Numbered from the stretch's first letter, positions 1,899 through 16,291 are shown. The stretch is 16,291 nucleotides of DNA from Adineta ricciae (GCA_905250025.1 CAJNOJ010000205.1:1-16291); one strand, 5' to 3'. The notes: a model not told the origin generated them from the sequence alone. Made by a program: numbers and translations.

Positions 1899-2861
1899 AT
1901 GCTACAGAATGCGACAGAGAAAGTCATAGTTACTGGTAGAGATATCTATCTTCCTCCGAACTGGTCGGACATTACCTTCTCTTTATATATAGTTGGTCAA
2001 CTAGCATCGATTCCTTGCTATGTATTTGTATTTTATCATCTTTTGGCTACTAAAACTGCGCGCACAGCTCTCTACAATCACACTACTATAATCATGTTAT
2101 TTTTCAATTTGATCTACCTGACAATAGGTATATCATTAGTATTGATGTTCATGAAAGAGGGCGTATACATGCCATCCACTCCCGCACTTTGTCTTACTCA
2201 TCAAATGGTCGACCGTGGAGTTTGGTATGGAGCTGTATTTACAATGATTTGGCTGTGTATCGAACGACATATCCTAATCTTTTGCTCCAACTGGATCCGA
2301 ACTGCACGTGGGCAATGGGTATTTCATTATATCCCATTAGCTATTTTTTCTCTGTATGCGCCATGTTTTTATTTCTACATGATTTTCATTTATCCATGTG
2401 AGCATATATATGATTATCATGTTACTTTATGTGGTGGCCCTTGGTACTCGTGTTCGTTGTCAGCATCATTTCGTTTGTATTTAACTTTTGGCCATAACTT
2501 CATGCCATTCCCAATCATTTTCATTGTCAGCAGCAGCTTTCTACTTCGAGTCTTGATCCAAAAGCACCGTTTGAAACGTGGTAATATGTGGAAAAAGAAT
2601 CGAAAAATGATTTTACAATTTGTCTTTATTTCTACGACCTATATCAGCTTTGCTCTACCTTTCACGATGGTGAATATTACACGAAGAGTAAATGGTTATG
2701 ATGTCGATCCGAATGTGCGGACACTCTTTGATCGGATGGCCAATGTGCCAGCAATAGTTTTACCTTATGCCACCGCTATAACATTACCTCATGTGAAACA
2801 GAAACTTAAAATGTTAATCTGGTGGAAACGCACACGAACGGCTATCAATCCTTTATCGTGA
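1899..2861 (+). CDS. Rhodopsin-like 7TM receptor (orphan or chemoreceptor-type GPCR), 320 aa, apparently single exon.
   Basis: ATG-initiated ORF of 320 aa. The N-terminal ectodomain carries the sequons NAT and NWS. Seven hydrophobic segments are present. After TM3 there is an E/DRY-like motif (CIERHILIF). The third intracellular loop is basic (KHRLKRGNMWKKNRK) and the C-tail is short. The TM1 - basic loop - TM2 architecture is shared with the two partial receptor genes at the window edges. Confidence 0.6.
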   Translation: MLQNATEKVIVTGRDIYLPPNWSDITFSLYIVGQLASIPCYVFVFYHLLATKTARTALYNHTTIIMLFFNLIYLTIGISLVLMFMKEGVYMPSTPALCLTHQMVDRGVWYGAVFTMIWLCIERHILIFCSNWIRTARGQWVFHYIPLAIFSLYAPCFYFYMIFIYPCEHIYDYHVTLCGGPWYSCSLSASFRLYLTFGHNFMPFPIIFIVSSSFLLRVLIQKHRLKRGNMWKKNRKMILQFVFISTTYISFALPFTMVNITRRVNGYDVDPNVRTLFDRMANVPAIVLPYATAITLPHVKQKLKMLIWWKRTRTAINPLS

Positions 2862-4925: not shown

Positions 4926-5590
4926 ATGAATGCGTTTGTCGTTGGATTGATTCTCGGCTTGCTAGTCGCAGGAAATGTACTAGCAGTTTTTATCGTCCTG
5001 TGGCGAATATCAGGTTTGGCATTACGATGGTGCCAGTATAAATGTAATTACTTTTTTTTCTAGTCACAAGCTCTACAAGTACGAGTTTAATCAGTACAAC
5101 TGTCACAAGTACTAAGAATCGACTACATAGAAACACGCCTAGTTTTTTCATTCTTTTTCTAGATAAAACTTCAACAACAGCAGCAACTACTATGACTAGA
5201 CCTCCGTCATCGGCCTGCGTATATAATAGCAGTATAACTTTCTACAATAATCAATTTCTTTATTCTTCAACATCGCAAACTTATGCAGCTGGGATGTTAA
5301 ATAATCAATTTGGTGTTTTCAAAGCTTATAGCTATGGAAATGTAACTGCTCAAGCTATATGGACAGCAAATCAAACTTCCACATCCGTTCCATGTTTTCT
5401 TGCTTTACAAACTGACCGTAATTTAGTTGTTTACGCAACGAGTAATCAAACAGTACTATGGGCGGCTAACATTTATAATAATGGCACTGGAAAACCATTC
5501 TGTTTTGAAATATCCGATTCTGGAAACCTAATCTGGATTGACAACAGTAGCTCGATTGTCTGGCAAACAAATACAGCACAAGCGGGATAA
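4926..5590 (+). CDS. Type-II membrane-anchored bulb-type (GNA-like, B_lectin) mannose-binding lectin. Two exons, join(4926..5013, 5064..5590), about 204 aa.
   Basis: Exon 1 encodes MNAFVVGLILGLLVAGNVLAVFIVLWRIS, a 25-residue hydrophobic anchor, and ends in phase 1 at cag|GTTTGG. The 50-nt intron at 5014..5063 ends in a polypyrimidine acceptor, cttttttttctag. Exon 2 restores the frame and gives V-TSSTSTSLISTTVTSTKNRLHRNTPSFFILFLDKTSTTAATT, a Ser/Thr-rich stalk. It then joins the listed 5192..5590 ORF, which contains the canonical bulb-lectin mannose-binding motif QxDxNxVxY as LQTDRNLVVY. Two further degenerate beta-prism subdomain repeats follow (…NNQFGVFKAY…, …ISDSGNLIWID…). Confidence 0.65.
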
Positions 5591-8081: not shown

Positions 8082-9897
8082 ATGCTATTTCTACCTGTCT
8101 TTCTGTTGTTAATATGGATACGAGCTGTTGTCTTGCTAGATTTGATGAGCGATACATGGACGGCAACCGATGGCCTTGGTCGTTCTCTCCCCAAAACAGT
8201 ACCGTCACCACGAGCAGATCGATTCGTTGGGATGTTCTATTTTCTCTGGCTTGGCTTTGAATCACCTGATGGACCATTTGACATCAGTAAAATTCTCACA
8301 GCTCATCCAAATGCAATGTTAGAACCGAATAATTCCGCATGGGGGCCGATGACTCATTATCATCACTGGGGTGAACCTTATTTTGGCTACTATCGTTCAA
8401 ACGATCAATGGGTTATTCGGCGACATGCGAGAATGCTGGTCAATGCTGGTGTTGATGTTATCTTCTTCGATGTCACAAATACTGCTGTTTATCTCGAGTC
8501 TTTTCGAGCTATATGCCAAGCCTTTTCCGATGTGCGTGCTGTAGGAGGGTCAACACCGCAAGTTGCATTTCTCACACCTTTTGGATCACCGCTCGGAACG
8601 GTGCAAGTTCTTTTCGACAGTATTTATAAGATAAACTATCATCCGGAACTGTGGTTTCGATGGGAAGGCAAACCATTCATCCTTGCCAATCCACAATCCT
8701 TTCAAACACGTCCGGATATTTTAAATTTTTTTACTTTTCGGACGCCTCAGCCTGATTATTTCACTGGGCCAACTGGTGCCAATCAATGGGGTTGGTTAGA
8801 AATATATCCTCAACACGTCTACAAAACTAGTGCAAACATATCGGAACAAATGACTGTTGGTGTCGCACAGAACGCCGTTGGCAATCGACTGGGATCGATG
8901 AGTGAAGTTGGTTCTCATGGGCGTAGTTTTCATAACAATACTATTCCATCAGGTAATACATTAACACCGTACGGATTAAATATGCAAGAGCAATGGGAAC
9001 GCGCCATAGAAATTGATCCACAATTTGTATTTGTTACTGGTTGGAATGAATGGATTGCTATGCGTCTATCGGAATTCGCTAGTATAAAACTTCCAGTTAT
9101 GTTTGTCGATGAATTCGATTGGGAACATAGTCGTGATATTGAGCCTTGTGCTGGAGGAGTTAACGGAGGGTATCCTGAAGGTAGGCAGCGTGATTTCTAT
9201 TCAGTTATTAATATGTAATGGTTTCCTAGGAAATCATTATCAGGATGCGTACTATTATCAATTAGTGAGCAATGTTCGTCGTTATAAAGGCGCTCGATCT
9301 GTTCCAATACCTACTGAACCGAAAACCATCAATATTGGACAAGATTTTACGCAATGGGAAACGGTTGGACCATCATTCATTGATTATATCAATGACGTAG
9401 AACATCGCAATGAGACTGGATACAACACTAGTATGCACTACCGGGATGATACAGGTCGAAATGACATTATCTTAGTCAAAGTAGCGAGAGACATGAACAA
9501 TGTTTACTTTTATGCTCGAACTAATAACACGCTGACGAATGCGAATAATAGTTCTAACTGGATGTTACTCTTTATTGATATTGATCAAAATTTTACAACA
9601 GGATGGGAAGGATTTGATATTGTAGTTAATCGTCACATTAATGGTTCGCTTACATCTATAGAACGAAGTCAATCTGGCTGGATTTGGCAACTCGTTTCAC
9701 AAATTGCTTTTGCCACCGTTAACCATGAATTACACTTCGCTATTCCCAGAGCGTTATTAGGTTTCAACAGCACAGCTCCTGTCAAGGTTAATTTCAAGTG
9801 GGTAGATAATATGATACGTGATGGCGATATTCTCAGTCTTTTTCAAAATGGAGACACTGCTCCGGATGGTCGGTTCAGTTATGTATTTAATGGTTAG
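8082..9897 (+). CDS. Secreted TIM-barrel glycoside-hydrolase-like protein of bacterial type. Two exons, join(8082..9180, 9230..9897), 588 aa.
   Basis: Two track ORFs (8082..9218 and 9103..9897) sit in different frames. They are joined exactly by a 49-nt GT..AG intron at 9181..9229 (GTAGGCAG…gtttcctAG). The donor falls after codon position 1, so G|GA reconstitutes Gly and gives …GGYPEG-NHYQDAYYYQ…. The N-terminus MLFLPVFLLLIWIRAVVLL is signal-peptide-like. The catalytic-domain motifs are those of bacterial (beta/alpha)8 glycosidases: HYHHWGEPYFGYYRSNDQWVIRRHARMLVNAGVDVIFFDVTN and a strand ending FVFVTGWNEWIAM (an 'NEW' motif, as in GH99/GH71/GH114-type and GHL families). The C-terminal ~250 aa form a beta-sandwich-like domain (NVYFYARTNNTLTN…WMLLFIDIDQNFTTGWEGFDIVVNR). 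A possible TATA (TATTTATA) lies at 8043..8050. Confidence 0.8.
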
Positions 9898-9938: not shown

Positions 9939-11461
9939 CTAAACTGCTTGAGCATGCGCTTCTTGTTTGGTTTTCTTTTGAAAAGTGCTCAATCCATCGT
10001 ATTCATTGTCACCCCAATAGAAAATAAGACTCTTTTCTGTTGCACCTTGTCCATATGGATAATACTTCTGATAGTCTAATGTATTGCTTAGTCCTCCCTT
10101 TTGGTCCACCAGAAGAATCACATTTTGATCATTTGGTTTGATAGTATTTCGCAGAACTGTATTACCAGATGCATACGAAATCGAAATTTCACCACCACCT
10201 GTACGATTGTTGTCATTTTGTTCAAGACGATTGTCAGTAAATGAACAATTCACCACTCGACCACGTCTAAAAGCGTTCATTTTCGTTATTCATTAACAGA
10301 AAAACTCTTAAGAAATCATTTACTTAGAATCATATCCACCGAAGGCCAATCCATATTTATCATTGTGATGAAGATAATTATTTCGCACAGTCATCTTCGT
10401 ACCTATTTGACCTTTATTCTCTGCACCAATTTCAATTCCCATGTCTGAATGATGTACTTCATTGTTTTCTATGGTGACATTCGATGCTCCATCAACATAG
10501 ATACCAGCTGCACTATGATCGTAAACTGAATGAATGTTCCAAACTGTGTTATTCGCACATCGAGCACTTCGAACCCCCAATTTACCGGCCCAGCTTTCAC
10601 CAGCTAATATTATGTTATATAGTTAACTTTTAATTAGAGAAATCATCAAAAGTCATACCGATGAAATCGATTCCAATGTTATTCATGTTATATACTTTGT
10701 TGTTCGTTACTTGAATCTCCTCAACGTTTCCATTGAAAGTCAAAGCTTCACTCCATGCTGGCTCACAATCATGGAGCGTGCAATTATCAACGATCACTTG
10801 TCGTCGACTCGTTTTCTGGTTTGTGTTATAAACGGTAATCGCCATTGCACCGCCGTTTTCGCCACCACCACGGATATCGTGAATATGGAGATTTCGAAGT
10901 TCTAGAAACATAAACTATATTTTTGGTAACGACAGCTTCAAAAACCTACCAACATTGGTTCCAGCGCCAGTAATTCTCACTCCACTGCATTCTGTCGATT
11001 TCAAACCTGTCAATTCTAAGTTGACAAAGCGGAGATAACTTTTATCTTGAACAAAGATTATATTTAATGTTCCATCAGCGGATGCTTTTTTTGTATCTTT
11101 GCCAGAAATAATCGGTGCATTGTTTGATGTTAAACTAGTGAATGTAATCGGCCCGTCTTGAGCATTGCCTTGGACGTTAATTGTGACAGCTTCGTAATAC
11201 GTTCCGGCACCAATGTAAACGGTAGAACCAGGTGTTGCCGAATTTGCTGCTTTTTGAACTGTTAACCAAGCAGTGGTTTCAGTAGTTCCTGCATTGGTAT
11301 CCTTGCCAGATTTGGTCACATAGTAAGATTTACCCGCTACTATTTAAAATAAACACATAGAACATTTTACGCTCAATCATATGATAGGCGTTCGTGTACA
11401 TACTTATTTGCATCCATAAAAGGGCACTCATCAAACATATAAGTTGAAATTGGAACGACAT
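9939..11461 (-). CDS. Secreted right-handed parallel beta-helix (PbH1-repeat, pectin-lyase-fold) protein, bacterial type, paralog 1. Five exons, complement(join(9939..10266, 10324..10603, 10659..10901, 10950..11339, 11404..11461)), 432 aa.
   Basis: Exon 1 is 58 nt and encodes MSFQFQLICLMSALLWMQI, a signal peptide. It ends in phase 1 at A|GTATGT. Intron 1 is 64 nt and ends tttattttaaatAG. Exon 2 begins …AGKSYYVTKSGKDTNAGTTETTAWLTVQKAANSATPGSTVYIGAGTYYE, the N-terminal cap signature of bacterial beta-helix proteins, and ends AATGTTG|GTAGGT. Intron 2 is 48 nt. Exon 3 encodes ELRNLHIHDIRGGG…NNIGIDFIG and ends ATCG|GTATGA. Intron 3 is 55 nt. Exon 4 carries PbH1 repeats (NVTIENNEVHHSDMGIEIGAEN…TVRNNYLHHNDKYGLAFGGYDSK) and ends TCTAA|GTAAAT. 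Intron 4 is 57 nt. Exon 5 encodes …TGGGEISISYASGNTVLRNTIKPN…SLIFYWGDNEYDGLSTFQKKTKQEAHAQAV*. Exon lengths sum to 1299 nt, which is 433 codons. All four junctions restore the frames of the track ORFs 10915..11319, 10630..10911, 10320..10580 and 9939..10280. Confidence 0.8.
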
Positions 11462-11508
11462 GATGAAAATCGTGAATACGAATGAGGTGGTAGATGTTTA
11501 TGTCGTTT

Positions 11509-11517
11509 CTTTATATA
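11509..11517 (-). promoter_or_regulatory. TATA box (TATATAAAG on the minus strand) about 48 nt upstream of the paralog-1 start codon.
   Basis: On the minus strand the sequence reads TCTTATATAAAGAAACGACATAAACATCTACCACCTCATTCGTATTCACGATTTTCATC-ATG. A near-identical arrangement, GGTATATATAAAGAAG…ATC-ATG, is found upstream of paralog 3. The corresponding position in paralog 2 is degenerate (GGTATGTTCACGC). Confidence 0.5.
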
Positions 11518-11900
11518 AGACATAGGTTACGATTAAAAGCGCAGGCAAATATTTACACCTCTTCTACTGTTTAGTCATAAACGGTTTCTTTTGAAATCGT
11601 GTCATGCATAGCCTCCAGCGCTGTGAATGCATTCTGTTCTGTATCAGAAACAAATCAACAATCTCCCTTGTGAAAAGATGCCATTAGAGGCATTAGTAAC
11701 CAATGTTTTTCTTCGTGACCATGCATTTGCAAACGTAAAATAATCATGACTACGTGTCGTCACCTTTATCGATTGAAACGATAATTACATTTTTCAATTT
11801 TTTCTTTCTCTCGCCTTCTCACAAGCTGACAATGTCGTCACTATCATGTGACTGGCAAACACGACATATCTTTATTCAAAACTTATGTAAACAAATGTTT

Positions 11901-13646
11901 CTACTCCAAGGCACGTTTACCAACACTGATCTGTGCATGCATCTCTTGTTTTGTATTCTCTTGGAATGCAGTGAGACCCTGGTATTCTCTATGTCCCCAA
12001 TAGAAGATTAGACTTTCTTTTGTTGCACCTCGTCCGTTCGGATAGTACTTTTGATAATCGAAGTGATTATTCAAACCACCTCTTTGGCTTGCTACTAGGA
12101 TTACGTTCTGTCTGTTTGGCTTTATTGTATTGCGCTGCACTATATTACCAGAAGCAAATGAAATGGAAATTTCTCCGCCACCAGTCAGATGTGCATCATT
12201 CTGTTCAAGATGATTGCCAGTAAATGAACTATTTGTCACTGTACCACATCTGTAAAATATCAGTATACATTTATTGATACTACCAAAATATGTGCGAATA
12301 TAACTTACTGAGAATCATATCCACCAAAAGCTAAGCCATATTTGTCGTTGTGATGAAGATAATTATTTCGAACAATCACCCTTGTAGCCATTCGACCTTT
12401 ATTCTCTGCACCAATTTCAATTCCCATATCTGCATGATGCACTACGTTGTGTTCTATGGTGACATTCGATGCTCCATCAACATAGATACCAGCTGCACTA
12501 TGATCGTAAACTGAATGAATGTTCCAAACTGTGTTATTCGCACATCGAGCACTTCGAACCCCCAATTTACCGGCCCAGCTTTCACCAGCTAGTAATATGT
12601 TATATAGTTAACTTTTAATTAGAGAAATCATCAAAAGTCATACCGATGAAATCGATTCCAATGTTGTTCATGTTATATACTTTGTTGTTCGTTACTTGAA
12701 TCTCCTCAACGTTTCCATTGAAAGTCAAAGCTTCGCTCCAAGCTGGCTCACAATCATGAAGCGTGCAATTATCAACGATCACTTGTCGTCGACTCGCGTT
12801 CTGGTTTGTGTTATAAACGGTAATCGCCATTGCACCGCCGTTTTCGCCACCACCACGGATATCGTGAACGTGGAGATTTCGAAGTTCTAGGAATATAAAA
12901 GGATAATTTTAATATCGATAAGCGTGAAACCTACCAATATTCGTTCCAGGGCCGATTATTCTCACTCCACTACACTCTACCGCTCTCAAATTTGTTAGTT
13001 CTAAATTGACGAACCGTAAATAGCTTTTGTCTTCAATATAGATGACATTGAATGTTTCATCGGCAGATGGATTTTGTGAAATTCTACCAGAAATAATTGG
13101 CACGTTGTTTGATATCAAACTAGTGAACGTAATTGGTCCATCGTGTGCATTTCCTTCTACGTTAATCGTCACTGTTTCATAATAAATGCCAGGACCAATA
13201 TAGACAGTAGAACCAGGTGTCGCTGAATTCGCTGCTCTTTGTATCGTTAACCAAGCAGTTACTCTACTTGTTCCCGCATTGGTATCTTGACCAGATTTCA
13301 TTACGTAATACGATCTGCGCGCCACTATGTAATAAACGCATACCCTTCTGTCGAGAATTATTGTTGTAGACTCACGGATAAAAAAAATGAATATATCAGA
13401 TCTGATAGAAAACTTTATGTTGAACATCTCAACGGTACACTTTGTCAGATATTCAAAATACATGCACTCATGTTTCAAGATTTATTCACTTACTTCCATC
13501 TTGCGTCCCGGGTGAGATTTTGTTCACTAGAAATTGAACTAGCACAGAGTGCTGCATGCTCAATTAGACAAATATTATGCATACGTACTTATTTGCGTCC
13601 ATAAAAGACCGGTGGCTAAATACATAGAATGCAGTCGATCAAACAT
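11901..13646 (-). CDS. Beta-helix protein paralog 2, the middle copy. Exons 2-5 are intact but the 5' end is divergent. Proposed model: complement(join(11901..12249, 12309..12588, 12644..12886, 12935..13324, 13589..13646)), about 439 aa if the homologous exon 1 is used.
   Basis: Exons 2-5 are the same length as in paralog 1 apart from exon 5 (390, 243 and 280 nt, with exon 5 at 349 nt). Junctions are homologous: AATATTG|GTAGGT, ATCG|GTATGA and TCTCA|GTAAGT. Introns 2, 3 and 4 are 48, 55 and 59 nt. Exon 2 encodes …ARRSYYVMKSGQDTNAGTSRVTAWLTIQRAANSATPGSTVYIGPGIYYE…. Exon 5 ends …KQEMHAQISVGKRALE*. The sequence homologous to exon 1 (13589..13646) encodes MFDRLHSMYLATGLLWTQI, which is no longer hydrophobic. 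It is separated from exon 2 by a 264-nt interval at 13325..13588 rather than a ~60-nt intron. No TATA box lies upstream. Whether this copy is expressed or secreted is uncertain. Confidence 0.6.
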
Positions 13647-13976
13647 GATGAAAATGATCAATGTGAATGAGGTATCAGATGCTCGTATCGTGCGTGAACA
13701 TACCAGAAGAAGTTTGCATTACTGATAAATATTTTCTTTGCATAGTGCGTCACGCATCGCTCTAGTATATGGAAAAATTGGCATTAAAAGTGTTAGTAAC
13801 CAGTGTTTTTCTCTTCATGACTATGCGTTTTGCAAATATAAATAAAACATGCCTATATGTCACCGCCTCCTCAGATCGAAGTGATGATTGCATATTTCAA
13901 TTTTCTCTTTCTCATCTTCCGACAACAGTGTCACTTTCATGTGATTTGCGATCGCAACATATATTTCATTCAAACT

Positions 13977-15530
13977 TTATAGAAAAAAGCGTTTACGTCC
14001 AAAGGCACGTTTGCTAACGCCGAGTTCTGCATGCATTTCTTGTTTGGTATTCTGTTGAAAGGAAGTCAAACCATCATACTCCGTGTTTCCCCAAAAGAAG
14101 ATAAGACTTTCTTTGGTAGCACCTTGACCATTCGGATAGTACTTTTGATAGTCAAATTGATTATTCAAACCACCTTCTTGGCTGGCAAGTAGAATTACAT
14201 TTTGTGAGTTTGGTCTTATCGTGTTACCATAGACTACATTGCCCGAAGCAAATGAGATTGAAATTTCTCCACCACCGGTAAGACGTACATCGTTCTGTTC
14301 AAGACGATTATTTATAAATAAACTATTGGTGACTTGACCACGTCTATAATGTGTTAACGTGCTCGTACTTTCATGTCACGAGATTATGCATAAATATAAC
14401 TTACTGAGAATCATATCCGCCAAAAGCTAAGCCATATTTGTCATTGTGATGAAGATAATTATTCCGAACAGTCATTTTTGAAGCCACTCGACCTTTATTC
14501 TCTGCGCCAACTTCGATCCCCATGTCCGAATGGTGTACTTCGTTAGATTCGATAGTGACATTCGATGCTCCATCAACATAGATACCCGCTGAACTACTAT
14601 CATAGACGGAGTGAATGTTCCACACGAGGTTATAAGCACAGAGACCATTTCGTACTCCAAGAGCACCGAGGAAGCTTTCTCCACCTTTAGAAAAAGAAAA
14701 AAAATATAACATTTCTGATATTTGACTGAGTTCTACATACCAATGAAATCGATTCCAATGTTGTTCATGTTATACACTTTGTTGTTCGTTACTTGAAAAT
14801 CTTCAATATTTCCATTGAAAGTCAAAGCTTCACTCCACGCTGGCTCGCAATCATGGAGTATACAACTATCAACGATCACTTGTCGTCGACTTGCCGTTTG
14901 ATCTTTATTGTAAACCGTGATTGGCATTGCTCCACCGCTCTGTCCACCGCCACGAATATCATGAATGTGCAAACCTCGAAGTTCTTGAAGCAAAAGCTAT
15001 ATTTTTGGTAACGACAGCATCAAAACCTACCAACATTGGTTCCAGCACCAGTAATTCTCACACCACTACATTCTACTGCTTTCAAATCTGTCAATTCTAA
15101 ATTGACAAAGCGCAAATAGCTTTTCTCTTGAATAAAAATTATGTTCATGGTGCCATCAGCAGATTCTGTTTTAGCCTGTTTGCCAGATATCACTGCTGGC
15201 TTATCAAAGATCAAGCTAGCGAATGTAATTAGTCCATCTCGGGCATTTCCTTGTACATTGACTGTTACTGTTTCATAATACGTTCCAGGACCAATGTAAA
15301 CCGTGGATCCGGGTGTTGCTGAATTCGCAGCTTTTTGAACTGTTAACCAAGCAGATGTCTCACTCGTTCCTGCATTGGTATCCTTGCCAGATTTCGTTAC
15401 ATAGTATGTTCTACCAGCTACTATATAATAGCCATACAGAAGACCTTATATTTCATAGTAGAAAATCTTTGCACATACCTGTTTGAGTCCAAAGTAAAAG
15501 AAAAGTGAAACAAGCAAGTCCTGTTTGCAT
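13977..15530 (-). CDS. Secreted beta-helix protein paralog 3. Five exons, complement(join(13977..14343, 14405..14684, 14741..14983, 15031..15420, 15479..15530)), 443 aa.
   Basis: Exon 1 is 52 nt and encodes MQTGLACFTFLLLWTQT, a signal peptide, ending G|GTATGT. Intron 1 is 58 nt and ends tattatatAG. Exon 2 encodes VAGRTYYVTKSGKDTNAGTSETSAWLTVQKAANSATPGSTVYIGPGTYYE… and ends AATGTTG|GTAGGT. Intron 2 is 47 nt and ends gcttcaAG. Exon 3 encodes ELRGLHIHDIRGGGQSGG…NNIGIDFIG and ends ATTG|GTATGT. Intron 3 is 56 nt and ends ttctaaAG. Exon 4 encodes GESFLGALGVRNG…GGYDSQ and ends CA|GTAAGT. Intron 4 is 61 nt and ends cattatAG. Exon 5 encodes …GGGEISISFASGNVVYGNTIRPN…SLIFFWGNTEYDGLTSFQQNTKQEMHAELGVSKRAFGRKRFFL*. 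Exon lengths sum to 1332 nt, which is 444 codons. Confidence 0.8.
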
Positions 15531-15567
15531 GATCGTTGTAAAATCTGTTTGACGAAATGTAATTCTT

Positions 15568-15578
15568 CTTTATATATA
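15568..15578 (-). promoter_or_regulatory. TATA box (TATATATAAAG on the minus strand) about 40 nt upstream of the paralog-3 start codon.
   Basis: On the minus strand the sequence reads GGTATATATAAAGAAGAATTACATTTCGTCAAACAGATTTTACAACGATC-ATG. The spacing and the ATC-ATG start context match paralog 1. Confidence 0.5.
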
Positions 15579-15855
15579 CCATACACGTATTTACCAAGGA
15601 AAGTGCAAGGGTCTATTTATATGTCACTTGTTAGGCGTCACTCTCAAGCAGTTTTCTATTTTCTATAACATGCGCACTTCTCAATATCAATTAGTTTTTC
15701 TTGCGTATGAAGTGAACTGCATATGTAACATGTTTCTGCATGGCTTCCTTCATTAATTGAGTTAGTTTATTTCAAGTGTTCGAAAAGGAAAAGGGTATAC
15801 ATGTAAATAGAGTAGGAGGGCGGAATGATACGACAACATTTGTTTTTGTGTGCTT

Positions 15856-16291
15856 TTATTTAGTGATGCCTGCACCTGTATGAGTCGCTGTTAACGTTGG
15901 TCGAACTCGATGTTGATTTTTGCTACATCCAAACATCATAATACATTCTTGCCGAAATTCTTTAAATGTGAGAAAATAAAGTGGAAATGACAAGATATGA
16001 TAAGTATACAAAACTGGATCTAGAATTTTAACCGATATTGGTGGAGGTATGTCAGAAAATGCAGAGGCAATGGTTGCTGGTACTGTCATGATCAGAAAGA
16101 GACATGTTGTAATAACCAGTGTAATCGAAATCGCTCGGTGATTGATTCGGGAGTTTTGAATCAATTGTGTTTGGTGACGACGATATAAATGATGAATCAC
16201 TCCACTATTAAGTGTCACCATAAGAATAAACGGTGCAAAATTGTACACACCTAAATTGACATAATCCCATAAGGGATAAATAATGTATAGT
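15856..16291 (-). CDS. Rhodopsin-like 7TM receptor, 3' portion (about TM3/4 to the C-terminus). The gene starts beyond the right edge.
   Basis: The minus-strand frame is open from the right edge to a stop at 15856..15858. The track 'M' at 16248 is a GTG codon inside the ORF. The translation reads …LYIIYPLWDYVNLGVYNFAPFILMVTLNSGVIHHLYRRHQTQLIQNSRINHRAISITLVITTCLFLIMTVPATIASAFSDIPPPISVKILDPVLYTYHILSFPLYFLTFKEFRQECIMMFGCSK… It contains a TM7 NPxxY-like motif (DPVLY) and a basic intracellular loop, as in the 1899..2861 receptor. Confidence 0.55.
   Translation of the reverse strand, partial: LYIIYPLWDYVNLGVYNFAPFILMVTLNSGVIHHLYRRHQTQLIQNSRINHRAISITLVITTCLFLIMTVPATIASAFSDIPPPISVKILDPVLYTYHILSFPLYFLTFKEFRQECIMMFGCSKNQHRVRPTLTATHTGAGITK

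Follow-up and report, generated by a model that had tools for sequence, protein, structure and literature searches.

Bdelloid rotifers are already established as animals that capture bacterial enzymes, add introns to the captured genes and carry foreign genes in clusters. For Adineta ricciae, the foreign share of transcripts was put at 9.7% on the criterion of an hU index of at least 30, meaning that the best non-metazoan match scores at least 30 bits above the best metazoan match of another phylum, and the foreign transcripts include those for the breakdown of polysaccharides (cellulose, polygalacturonate) (PMC3499245). Here, a stretch of A. ricciae DNA of 16,291 nucleotides (nt) was analyzed over its whole length (GCA_905250025.1, CAJNOJ010000205.1:1-16291; the window), in which three tandem genes, termed g1, g2 and g3, encode predicted secreted right-handed beta-helix proteins. 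A bacterial origin of these genes, an old acquisition and local amplification are supported by the data. The array shares with the genes classed as HGTc in the same species (Boschetti et al. 2012, PMC3499245; Eyres et al. 2015, PMC4632278; Nowell et al. 2021 preprint, 10.1101/2021.09.04.458992) bacterial best matches, the lack of a metazoan homologue outside the bdelloids, introns acquired since the transfer, physical linkage with native genes and the presence of other foreign-looking genes nearby. The beta-helix family was not singled out in the bdelloid literature searched. The host being a bdelloid, in which such transfers are well documented, the surprise is therefore much smaller than was assumed in a preliminary description of this DNA made from the sequence alone.

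A second group of described systems, the enzymes that process the exopolysaccharide Pel, bears on the possible function. Pel is a partially de-N-acetylated alpha-1,4 N-acetylgalactosamine (GalNAc) polymer (PMC9135694), 1,4-linked GalNAc is also found in fungal galactosaminogalactan (10.1101/113696), and Pel hydrolase activity has been demonstrated experimentally for a DUF4832 protein of a streptococcal pel operon (PMC12345266). Pel-processing hydrolases (the PelA hydrolase domain, the DUF4832 protein SIR_1591 and enzymes of the GH114/GH135 type whose substrate is galactosaminogalactan) are encoded beside bacterial members of the beta-helix family, and a shared substrate class is proposed because the genes adjoin, which is a link of neighborhood only. 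The hydrolases are of the TIM-barrel type, in contrast to the beta-helix of the present family, and no beta-helix Pel hydrolase was described in the literature searched.

Gene array and bacterial ancestry

The minus strand carries the three paralogous genes head to tail at 9939-15530 (Table 1), and their products are 74-78% identical to one another, far above chance. Gene models were built by threading open frames through canonical GT-AG introns, and the open reading frames (ORFs) proved intact across five exons, with four introns at identical protein positions and phases (1, 1, 1, 2) in every copy; intron lengths were 46-64 nt except for intron 1 of g2. The tandem layout, the shared intron positions and all of the peptide motifs quoted in the preliminary description were thus recovered in g1-g3. 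The g3 translation was the same, residue for residue, as the public A. ricciae protein P0003, and the five-exon structure had therefore been reached by independent annotation. The public model P0005, likewise labelled A. ricciae, represents the g2 gene with another splice of intron 1 and an extra mini-exon inside that intron. In the public annotation of contig CAJNOR010002926.1, g1 and g2 are merged into a single product of 801 amino acids (aa) (window 9939-13301) that begins at the Met within YYVMKSG of g2; the fusion is a mistake that arose from the tandem layout. The public database name of these proteins is 'Right handed beta helix domain-containing protein'.

Homologues were sought among ~ 5.8 billion proteins, and the best 120 of 444 matches were listed. 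Among these, the only named eukaryotes were bdelloids (55-83% identity), namely A. vaga (83%), A. ricciae, A. steineri, several Rotaria and Didymodactylos carnosus (55-56%), and the remaining matches were bacterial or metagenomic, at 37-48% identity. The named bacterial relatives included Caldithrix, Verrucomicrobiaceae and Blastocatellia, and many of the bacterial or metagenomic matches had type-IX secretion tails. When bacterial genomes were scanned, each species being represented by one, 287 loci were found across many bacterial phyla. Viral contigs were also scanned for relatives, but none were found, and nothing pointed to a viral vector. No non-rotifer metazoan was present among the listed matches, and the top non-rotifer matches, bacterial or metagenomic, scored 359-410 bits, placing hU at no less than ~ 360-410 bits against the threshold of 30.

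Four of the contigs nearest to the bdelloid clade were inspected. On three of the four the genes are ordinary bacterial ones (lipoyl synthase and glycine cleavage; histidine kinases; an RND pump, Mfd and AlaRS), and the fourth, L002, carries P0019, the closest non-rotifer homologue among the listed matches (48% identity, intronless). L002 (JGI metagenome 3300036987, contig Ga0377238_004805) is 28 kb long with a guanine-plus-cytosine (GC) content of 40% and wide intergenic gaps, and the neighbors of P0019 include an ADK-phosphoribosyltransferase fusion and a protein of > 3146 aa with DUF3638, with nothing common to the other loci. DUF3638 is presumably a mainly eukaryotic domain. The contig may be either bacterial (for example chlamydial) or that of another eukaryote.

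A neighbor-joining distance tree was calculated from an alignment of 55 sequences (382 columns), and 200 bootstrap replicates were run. The bdelloid sequences formed one clade, nested among bacterial sequences, with a bootstrap of 100% that covers the clade and not its placement there. Within the clade Didymodactylos branched first, followed by Rotaria and Adineta, so that the branching follows genus, which is the order expected of vertical descent after a single ancient transfer. The preliminary description had called the proteins bacterial in type and had proposed that the top matches, a phylogeny and a foreignness index be used to judge this, and all three agreed with its view.

The introns speak to the age of the acquisition. 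All four introns recur, in the same phases, in the A. vaga orthologue P0002, which is located on a 13.9-Mb chromosome; a gene of Rotaria sordida shares the four and has a fifth near the C terminus. In Didymodactylos, the earliest-branching lineage in the tree, introns 1 (phase 1, after the signal-peptide exon), 3 (IDFI|GGES, phase 1) and 4 (GGYDST|, phase 2) were present and intron 2 was not. These three introns are therefore older than the split of the sampled bdelloid genera, in line with the old acquisition that had been suggested. Intron 1 sets the signal peptide apart on an exon of its own, an arrangement that would fit a eukaryotic secretion signal joined to a bacterial mature domain. 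In the D. carnosus locus (L006, 3440-3600) a frame change is needed after intron 4, between RGRVQNC and SFQNNVLENND, which the public model sidesteps by a non-homologous splice; the copy may be a pseudogene or may have been misassembled.

The genes might be suspected of being bacterial contaminants or part of a chimeric assembly, as the nearest non-rotifer relatives are bacterial and the contig is short (17.7 kb). Against this stand the four canonical spliceosomal GT-AG introns of every copy, the seven-transmembrane (7TM) receptor-like ORFs that flank the array on the same contig (weak Pfam matches, E ~ 2e-3), the A. vaga orthologue, which shares these introns and is placed in a chromosome-level assembly, and the related copies in the independent Rotaria and Didymodactylos assemblies. 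The GC content of the array, 0.36-0.41, was also like that of its flanks. Contamination is effectively excluded, as the preliminary description had held.

The copies are under purifying selection. The ratio of nonsynonymous to synonymous substitution rates (dN/dS) was 0.13-0.19 among g1-g3 and 0.11 between g1 and the A. vaga orthologue, with a whole range of 0.11-0.25, and each copy retained the family residue at 85-86 of the 89 columns conserved to 90% or more, the few changes being conservative. Domestication and local amplification, both put forward earlier, are borne out by these values. In the tree g1 paired with A. vaga P0002 (87% bootstrap, 83% identity), and dN was lower between these two (0.096) than between g1 and g3 (0.154); the duplications are therefore about as old as the split of A. 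vaga and A. ricciae. A tract shared by g1 and g2 was identical at 409 of 417 nt (98%), compared with 72% over the remainder of both genes, and marks a recent gene conversion.

The second copy departs from the other two in several respects. The best 10-residue Kyte-Doolittle hydrophobicity at the N terminus was 2.4 for g1 and g3 against 1.15 for g2, whose predicted signal peptide is weak, and intron 1 of g2 is 264 nt long (13325-13588) against 58-64 nt in g1 and g3. No TATA-like box was present within 150 nt upstream of the g2 ATG (13647-13796). A signal peptide and a eukaryotic TATA box had been ascribed to each gene; both ascriptions fit g1 and g3, but g2 has the weak peptide and lacks the box in that region. 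These features of g2, together with the frameshift after intron 4 in one Didymodactylos copy, could be taken to mean that the array is a decaying relic, largely unexpressed or with pseudogene copies and without a present function. This is very unlikely, however, given that all three ORFs are intact, that the conserved residues are retained in every copy, that dN/dS is low both between the copies and against A. vaga and that splice sites are retained across genera. The g2 coding sequence is itself under constraint despite its odd intron 1, upstream region and signal peptide.

The history that we consider very probable is that a bacterial gene was captured by an early bdelloid and was then domesticated and duplicated. 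The gene was acquired from a bacterium before Didymodactylos, Rotaria and Adineta diverged. Spliceosomal introns were gained after the transfer, one of them parting the signal-peptide exon from the mature protein, as were eukaryotic promoter and polyadenylation signals. Within Adineta the gene was then duplicated locally, at roughly the time when A. vaga and A. ricciae separated, and the 417-nt tract was later swapped between g1 and g2 by gene conversion. Each of these events either is shown by the data or can be read straight from the sequence.

Table 1. Positions of the array and of other features in the window, counted from its first nucleotide.
Feature	Position	Strand	Remarks
g1	9939..11461	-	432 aa, predicted secreted beta-helix protein, five exons
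g1 exons	11461-11404, 11339-10950, 10901-10659, 10603-10324, 10266-9939	-	splice model
g1 introns			64, 48, 55, 57 nt
g2	11901..13646	-	439 aa, five-exon paralogue
g2 exons	13646-13589, 13324-12935, 12886-12644, 12588-12309, 12249-11901	-	splice model
g3	13977..15530	-	443 aa, five-exon paralogue
g3 exons	15530-15479, 15420-15031, 14983-14741, 14684-14405, 14343-13977	-	splice model
Gene-conversion tract, g1 arm	10467..10883	-	most of exon 3, whole intron 3, first half of exon 4
Gene-conversion tract, g2 arm	12452..12868	-	g2 12868-12452 aligned to g1 arm
TATA-like box TATATAA	11511..11517	-	56 nt upstream of g1 ATG; motif match only
TATA-like box TATATAT, within TATATATAAAG	15572..15578	-	48 nt upstream of g3 ATG; motif match only
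Polyadenylation-like signal AATAAA of g2	11871..11876	-	25 nt past stop codon; motif match only
Polyadenylation-like motif ATTAAA of g1	9891-9886	-	motif match only
Polyadenylation-like motif AATGAA of g3	13970-13965	-	motif match only
Convergent neighbor gene	8082-9180, 9230-9897	+	588 aa, one 49-nt intron
Cytochrome P450 gene	3191-4726	+	511 aa, intronless
ORF with weak B_lectin match	5192-5590	+	
ORF with weak 7TM match	1899-2861	+	
ORF with weak 7TM match	15856-16248	-	

Fold and candidate active site

The Pfam family PF13229 (Beta_helix) was matched by g1 (E 5.6e-17), g2 (2.3e-16) and g3 (5.9e-15), in all cases above the curated cut-off. The two further families that had been expected, PF07602 (DUF1565) and PF12708 (Pectate_lyase_3), gave no match in g1-g3 at E <= 0.01 in the local Pfam scan. 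Among the listed homologues, PF07602 was found in the precomputed matches only for bacterial relatives and one Didymodactylos protein, and PF12708 was not found in the precomputed domains. NCBIfam holds no curated family for these beta-helix proteins. An AlphaFold2 model of g3, built from a 49-sequence alignment, had a mean predicted local distance difference test score (pLDDT) of 92.8 and is predicted to form a single right-handed beta-helix, with stacked coils and three beta-sheets, an N-terminal cap and a small C-terminal hairpin-helix cap. When the model was searched with Foldseek, GH136, GH120, PL9 and PL6 came at the top, and many kinds of beta-helix gave similar scores. Sequence profiles compared with solved structures aligned over the N-terminal cap only, with the sole exception of the GH120 enzyme XylC, where three central coils aligned too. 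The architecture anticipated in the preliminary description stands as a predicted right-handed beta-helix of a generic kind, and no characterized CAZy family could be matched to it.

The closest of the characterized proteins were compared feature by feature. Of the solved structures, the GH120 beta-xylosidase XylC (PDB 3vst) was closest in sequence (profile E 2e-17), and the likeness lies in the N-terminal cap motif YxVxxxGxDxxxGxxxxPxxTIxxAxxxAxxGDTxxVxxGxY and the few central coils. The catalytic nucleophile of XylC, which we take to be Asp382, aligned to the family-invariant Gly288 (own indexing), and the alignment stopped before the presumed acid/base, Glu405. XylC is also longer, at 638 aa, and g1-g3 (432-443 aa) lack its extra beta-sandwich domain. 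In the case of the GH136 lacto-N-biosidases (PDB 6kqs, 5gqc, 7v6m), only profile positions 20-150 aligned, the NCBIfam LnbX score was 17.5 bits against a cut-off of 2500, and these enzymes are larger and multidomain, unlike the single-domain proteins studied here. The N-terminal cap aligned with the PL9 lyases Pel9A (1ru4, E 7e-4) and BT4170 (5olq, E 9e-7), spanning positions 18-83 and 20-65 only, and the PL9 catalytic coil lay outside the alignment; in Pel9A the catalytic coils presumably hold Ca2+-binding aspartates and a catalytic lysine. PF22842 (Pel9A-like_beta_helix) was present in the precomputed Pfam matches of most family members among those listed and was not reported for g1-g3 at E <= 0.01 in the local scan.

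The motif that we take to be catalytic in mannuronan C5-epimerases (AlgE/AlgG), YG(F/I)DPH(D/E) or DPHD, was not matched. For NosD, TIGR04247 gave 21 bits against a cut-off of 300, and the Pfam NosD scores of 26.9 bits for g1 and 22.9 bits for g3 (cut-off 23.6) reflect generic repeats only. By the features tested, g1-g3 do not belong to GH120, GH136, the C5-epimerases or NosD, and membership of PL9 is not supported by the sequence alignment, which is confined to the cap.

Polar residues that are invariant in the family fall on successive coils (among them E199, D226, Y264, D266, E286, E290, K311 and E348 in g3 numbering). A set of 26 conserved polar residues was checked; the rotifer copies agreed at every one of them, and those bacterial members that carry an informative gene context (see below) at nearly every one. 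Carboxylates stacked on neighboring coils are the pattern of beta-helix glycoside hydrolases, and because several carboxylates stack on adjacent coils here, hydrolysis is the activity we favor. The protein is probably a catalytic carbohydrate-active enzyme. One alternative, to which the 'pectin-lyase fold' label and the preliminary description point, is that g1-g3 are lyases or epimerases acting on a uronic-acid polymer (pectate, alginate or a VPS-like exopolysaccharide) and not amino-sugar hydrolases. We regard a lyase or epimerase as unlikely.

Bacterial gene neighborhoods and candidate substrate

The neighborhoods of 80 bacterial loci were analyzed by clustering the neighboring genes. No neighbor was conserved across the whole family at these loci. 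About 13 of the 80, from three lineages, lay in pel clusters or in operons with DUF4832 and galactosamine catabolism genes. At seven loci in metagenome-assembled genomes (MAGs) of Calditrichota, Ignavibacteriales and Caldisericaceae, the beta-helix gene, with a type IX secretion system (T9SS) tail, was found within one co-directional operon together with genes for a DeoR regulator, an SIS-domain protein, GatZ/KbaZ, an EamA transporter, a PfkB kinase and a class-II aldolase, and next came genes for between one and three DUF4874/DUF4832 proteins with T9SS tails and for a GHL10 protein. The cytoplasmic enzyme set is presumably that of the galactosamine/GalNAc (tagatose-6-phosphate) pathway. At five Verrucomicrobiota MAG loci (L070, L081, L034, L056 and L071) the beta-helix gene lay within a pel-type exopolysaccharide cluster, in the order of a tetratricopeptide-repeat (TPR) PelB-like protein, a 1066-aa PelA-like protein with a GH114 domain, an epimerase, the beta-helix gene, PelG (E 1e-121) and PelF (DUF3492 and GT4); a beta-helix accessory gene in pel loci was not described in the literature searched. 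Finally, at one Spirochaetales locus the beta-helix gene adjoined genes for a DUF4832 protein, a GH114-like protein that belongs to this same PelA-like family, an epimerase and a GHL10 protein.

These neighborhoods suggest a depolymerase of Pel-like or galactosaminogalactan-like polymers. The conserved polar residues are common to the rotifer proteins and to the bacterial members with this context, and the substrate hypothesis can therefore reasonably be carried over to the rotifer. A Pel-like or galactosamine polymer is offered tentatively as the substrate, as a possibility suggested by the neighboring genes.

The same loci bear on a different explanation, namely that the proteins are non-catalytic, secreted glycan-binding or adhesin-type proteins, serving for example in the pattern recognition of microbial surfaces. 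The 26 polar residues, six of which are carboxylates placed on successive coils, are near-invariant from bacteria to rotifers at 35-48% overall identity, a pattern typical of an active site, and bacterial members share operons with catabolic enzymes and with further secreted hydrolases. A non-catalytic role is accordingly quite unlikely.

The explanation that we favor overall, with somewhat more confidence than doubt, combines the bacterial origin with an exopolysaccharide depolymerase. The product would be a secreted, single-domain right-handed beta-helix of ~ 410 residues with a conserved polar groove, secretion being predicted from the N-terminal sequence. The catalysis, hydrolase mechanism, substrate and physiological role that we infer for g1-g3 would be those of a glycoside-hydrolase-type depolymerase, which would cleave a microbial exopolysaccharide by way of the conserved carboxylate groove. 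The likeliest substrate would be a galactosamine/GalNAc polymer, such as bacterial Pel or fungal galactosaminogalactan, and the rotifer may secrete these enzymes to break a biofilm or a cell-wall or fungal matrix, for feeding or defense.

Several points weigh against this explanation. The pel or DUF4832 context was present at only ~ 13 of the 80 loci, the others being without recurrent neighbors; the bacterial members that have it are only 35-41% identical to the rotifer proteins; and the bacterial sequences nearest to the bdelloid clade (L007, L008, L089 and L090) are without it. The conserved groove is predicted from sequence periodicity, and searches with the modeled structure do not separate hydrolases from lyases, epimerases, NosD or adhesins such as PfbA. 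The second copy, with its weak signal peptide, expanded intron 1 and lack of a TATA-like box, may be differently regulated or decaying. As to the origin, a distant non-bdelloid eukaryotic homologue beyond the best 120 of 444 matches is not strictly excluded.

Flanking genes and wider meaning

The gene convergent with g1, whose stop codon lies 41 nt from that of g1, is a second bacterial-type gene. Its product has a hydrophobic N terminus and a weak similarity to GH99 endo-alpha-mannosidase. The named eukaryotes with homologues were all Adineta (80-95% identity), and bacterial matches were found in Actinomadura and Armatimonadota (50-55%). Homologues from metagenomes were 73-78% identical, and one of these, P0128, was on animal-like contigs. 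On contigs L087 and L088 (JGI metagenomes 3300024989 and 3300024991) an intronless, 73%-identical GH99-like copy was flanked by 7tm_1, PLAT and anti-LPS-factor genes, and these contigs are probably from unsampled bdelloid-like animals in environmental samples. Co-transfer of this gene with the beta-helix gene was considered and rejected, as no homologue lay beside any of the 80 bacterial beta-helix loci and its bacterial relatives belong to different groups.

Elsewhere in the window, the intronless cytochrome P450 gene (Pfam E 2e-60), which occurs with exactly the same sequence on contig CAJNOR010002926.1 of assembly GCA_905250095.1, might be another acquired gene in this foreign-gene-rich region. 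The ORF that follows it gave a weak match to B_lectin (bulb-type mannose-binding lectin; E 7.5e-6, below the Pfam cut-off) and another to putidacin-type lectin-like bacteriocins, and is annotated publicly as a 186-aa gene. The two ORFs on either side of the array have weak rhodopsin-family 7TM matches (E ~ 2e-3) and, by these similarities, are the most 'animal-like' genes of the contig.

The locus offers a clean, datable case of a single bacterial-to-bdelloid transfer followed by tandem duplication and gene conversion. It also provides a large, uncharacterized bacterial beta-helix family (at least 287 loci) with a testable hypothesis of an amino-sugar-polymer substrate. Hydrolases of Pel and galactosaminogalactan are under exploration as anti-biofilm agents (PMC4928890, PMC8546845). 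A more speculative proposal, which we hold with considerable doubt, is that the bacterial and bdelloid members make up an undescribed beta-helix glycoside hydrolase family for alpha-1,4 galactosamine/GalNAc exopolysaccharides (bacterial Pel, fungal galactosaminogalactan), which bdelloids would have captured, retained and multiplied as a secreted anti-biofilm enzyme, for feeding or against the matrix of fungal pathogens. If true, this would be a new class of biofilm-matrix depolymerase, adopted by a microscopic animal.

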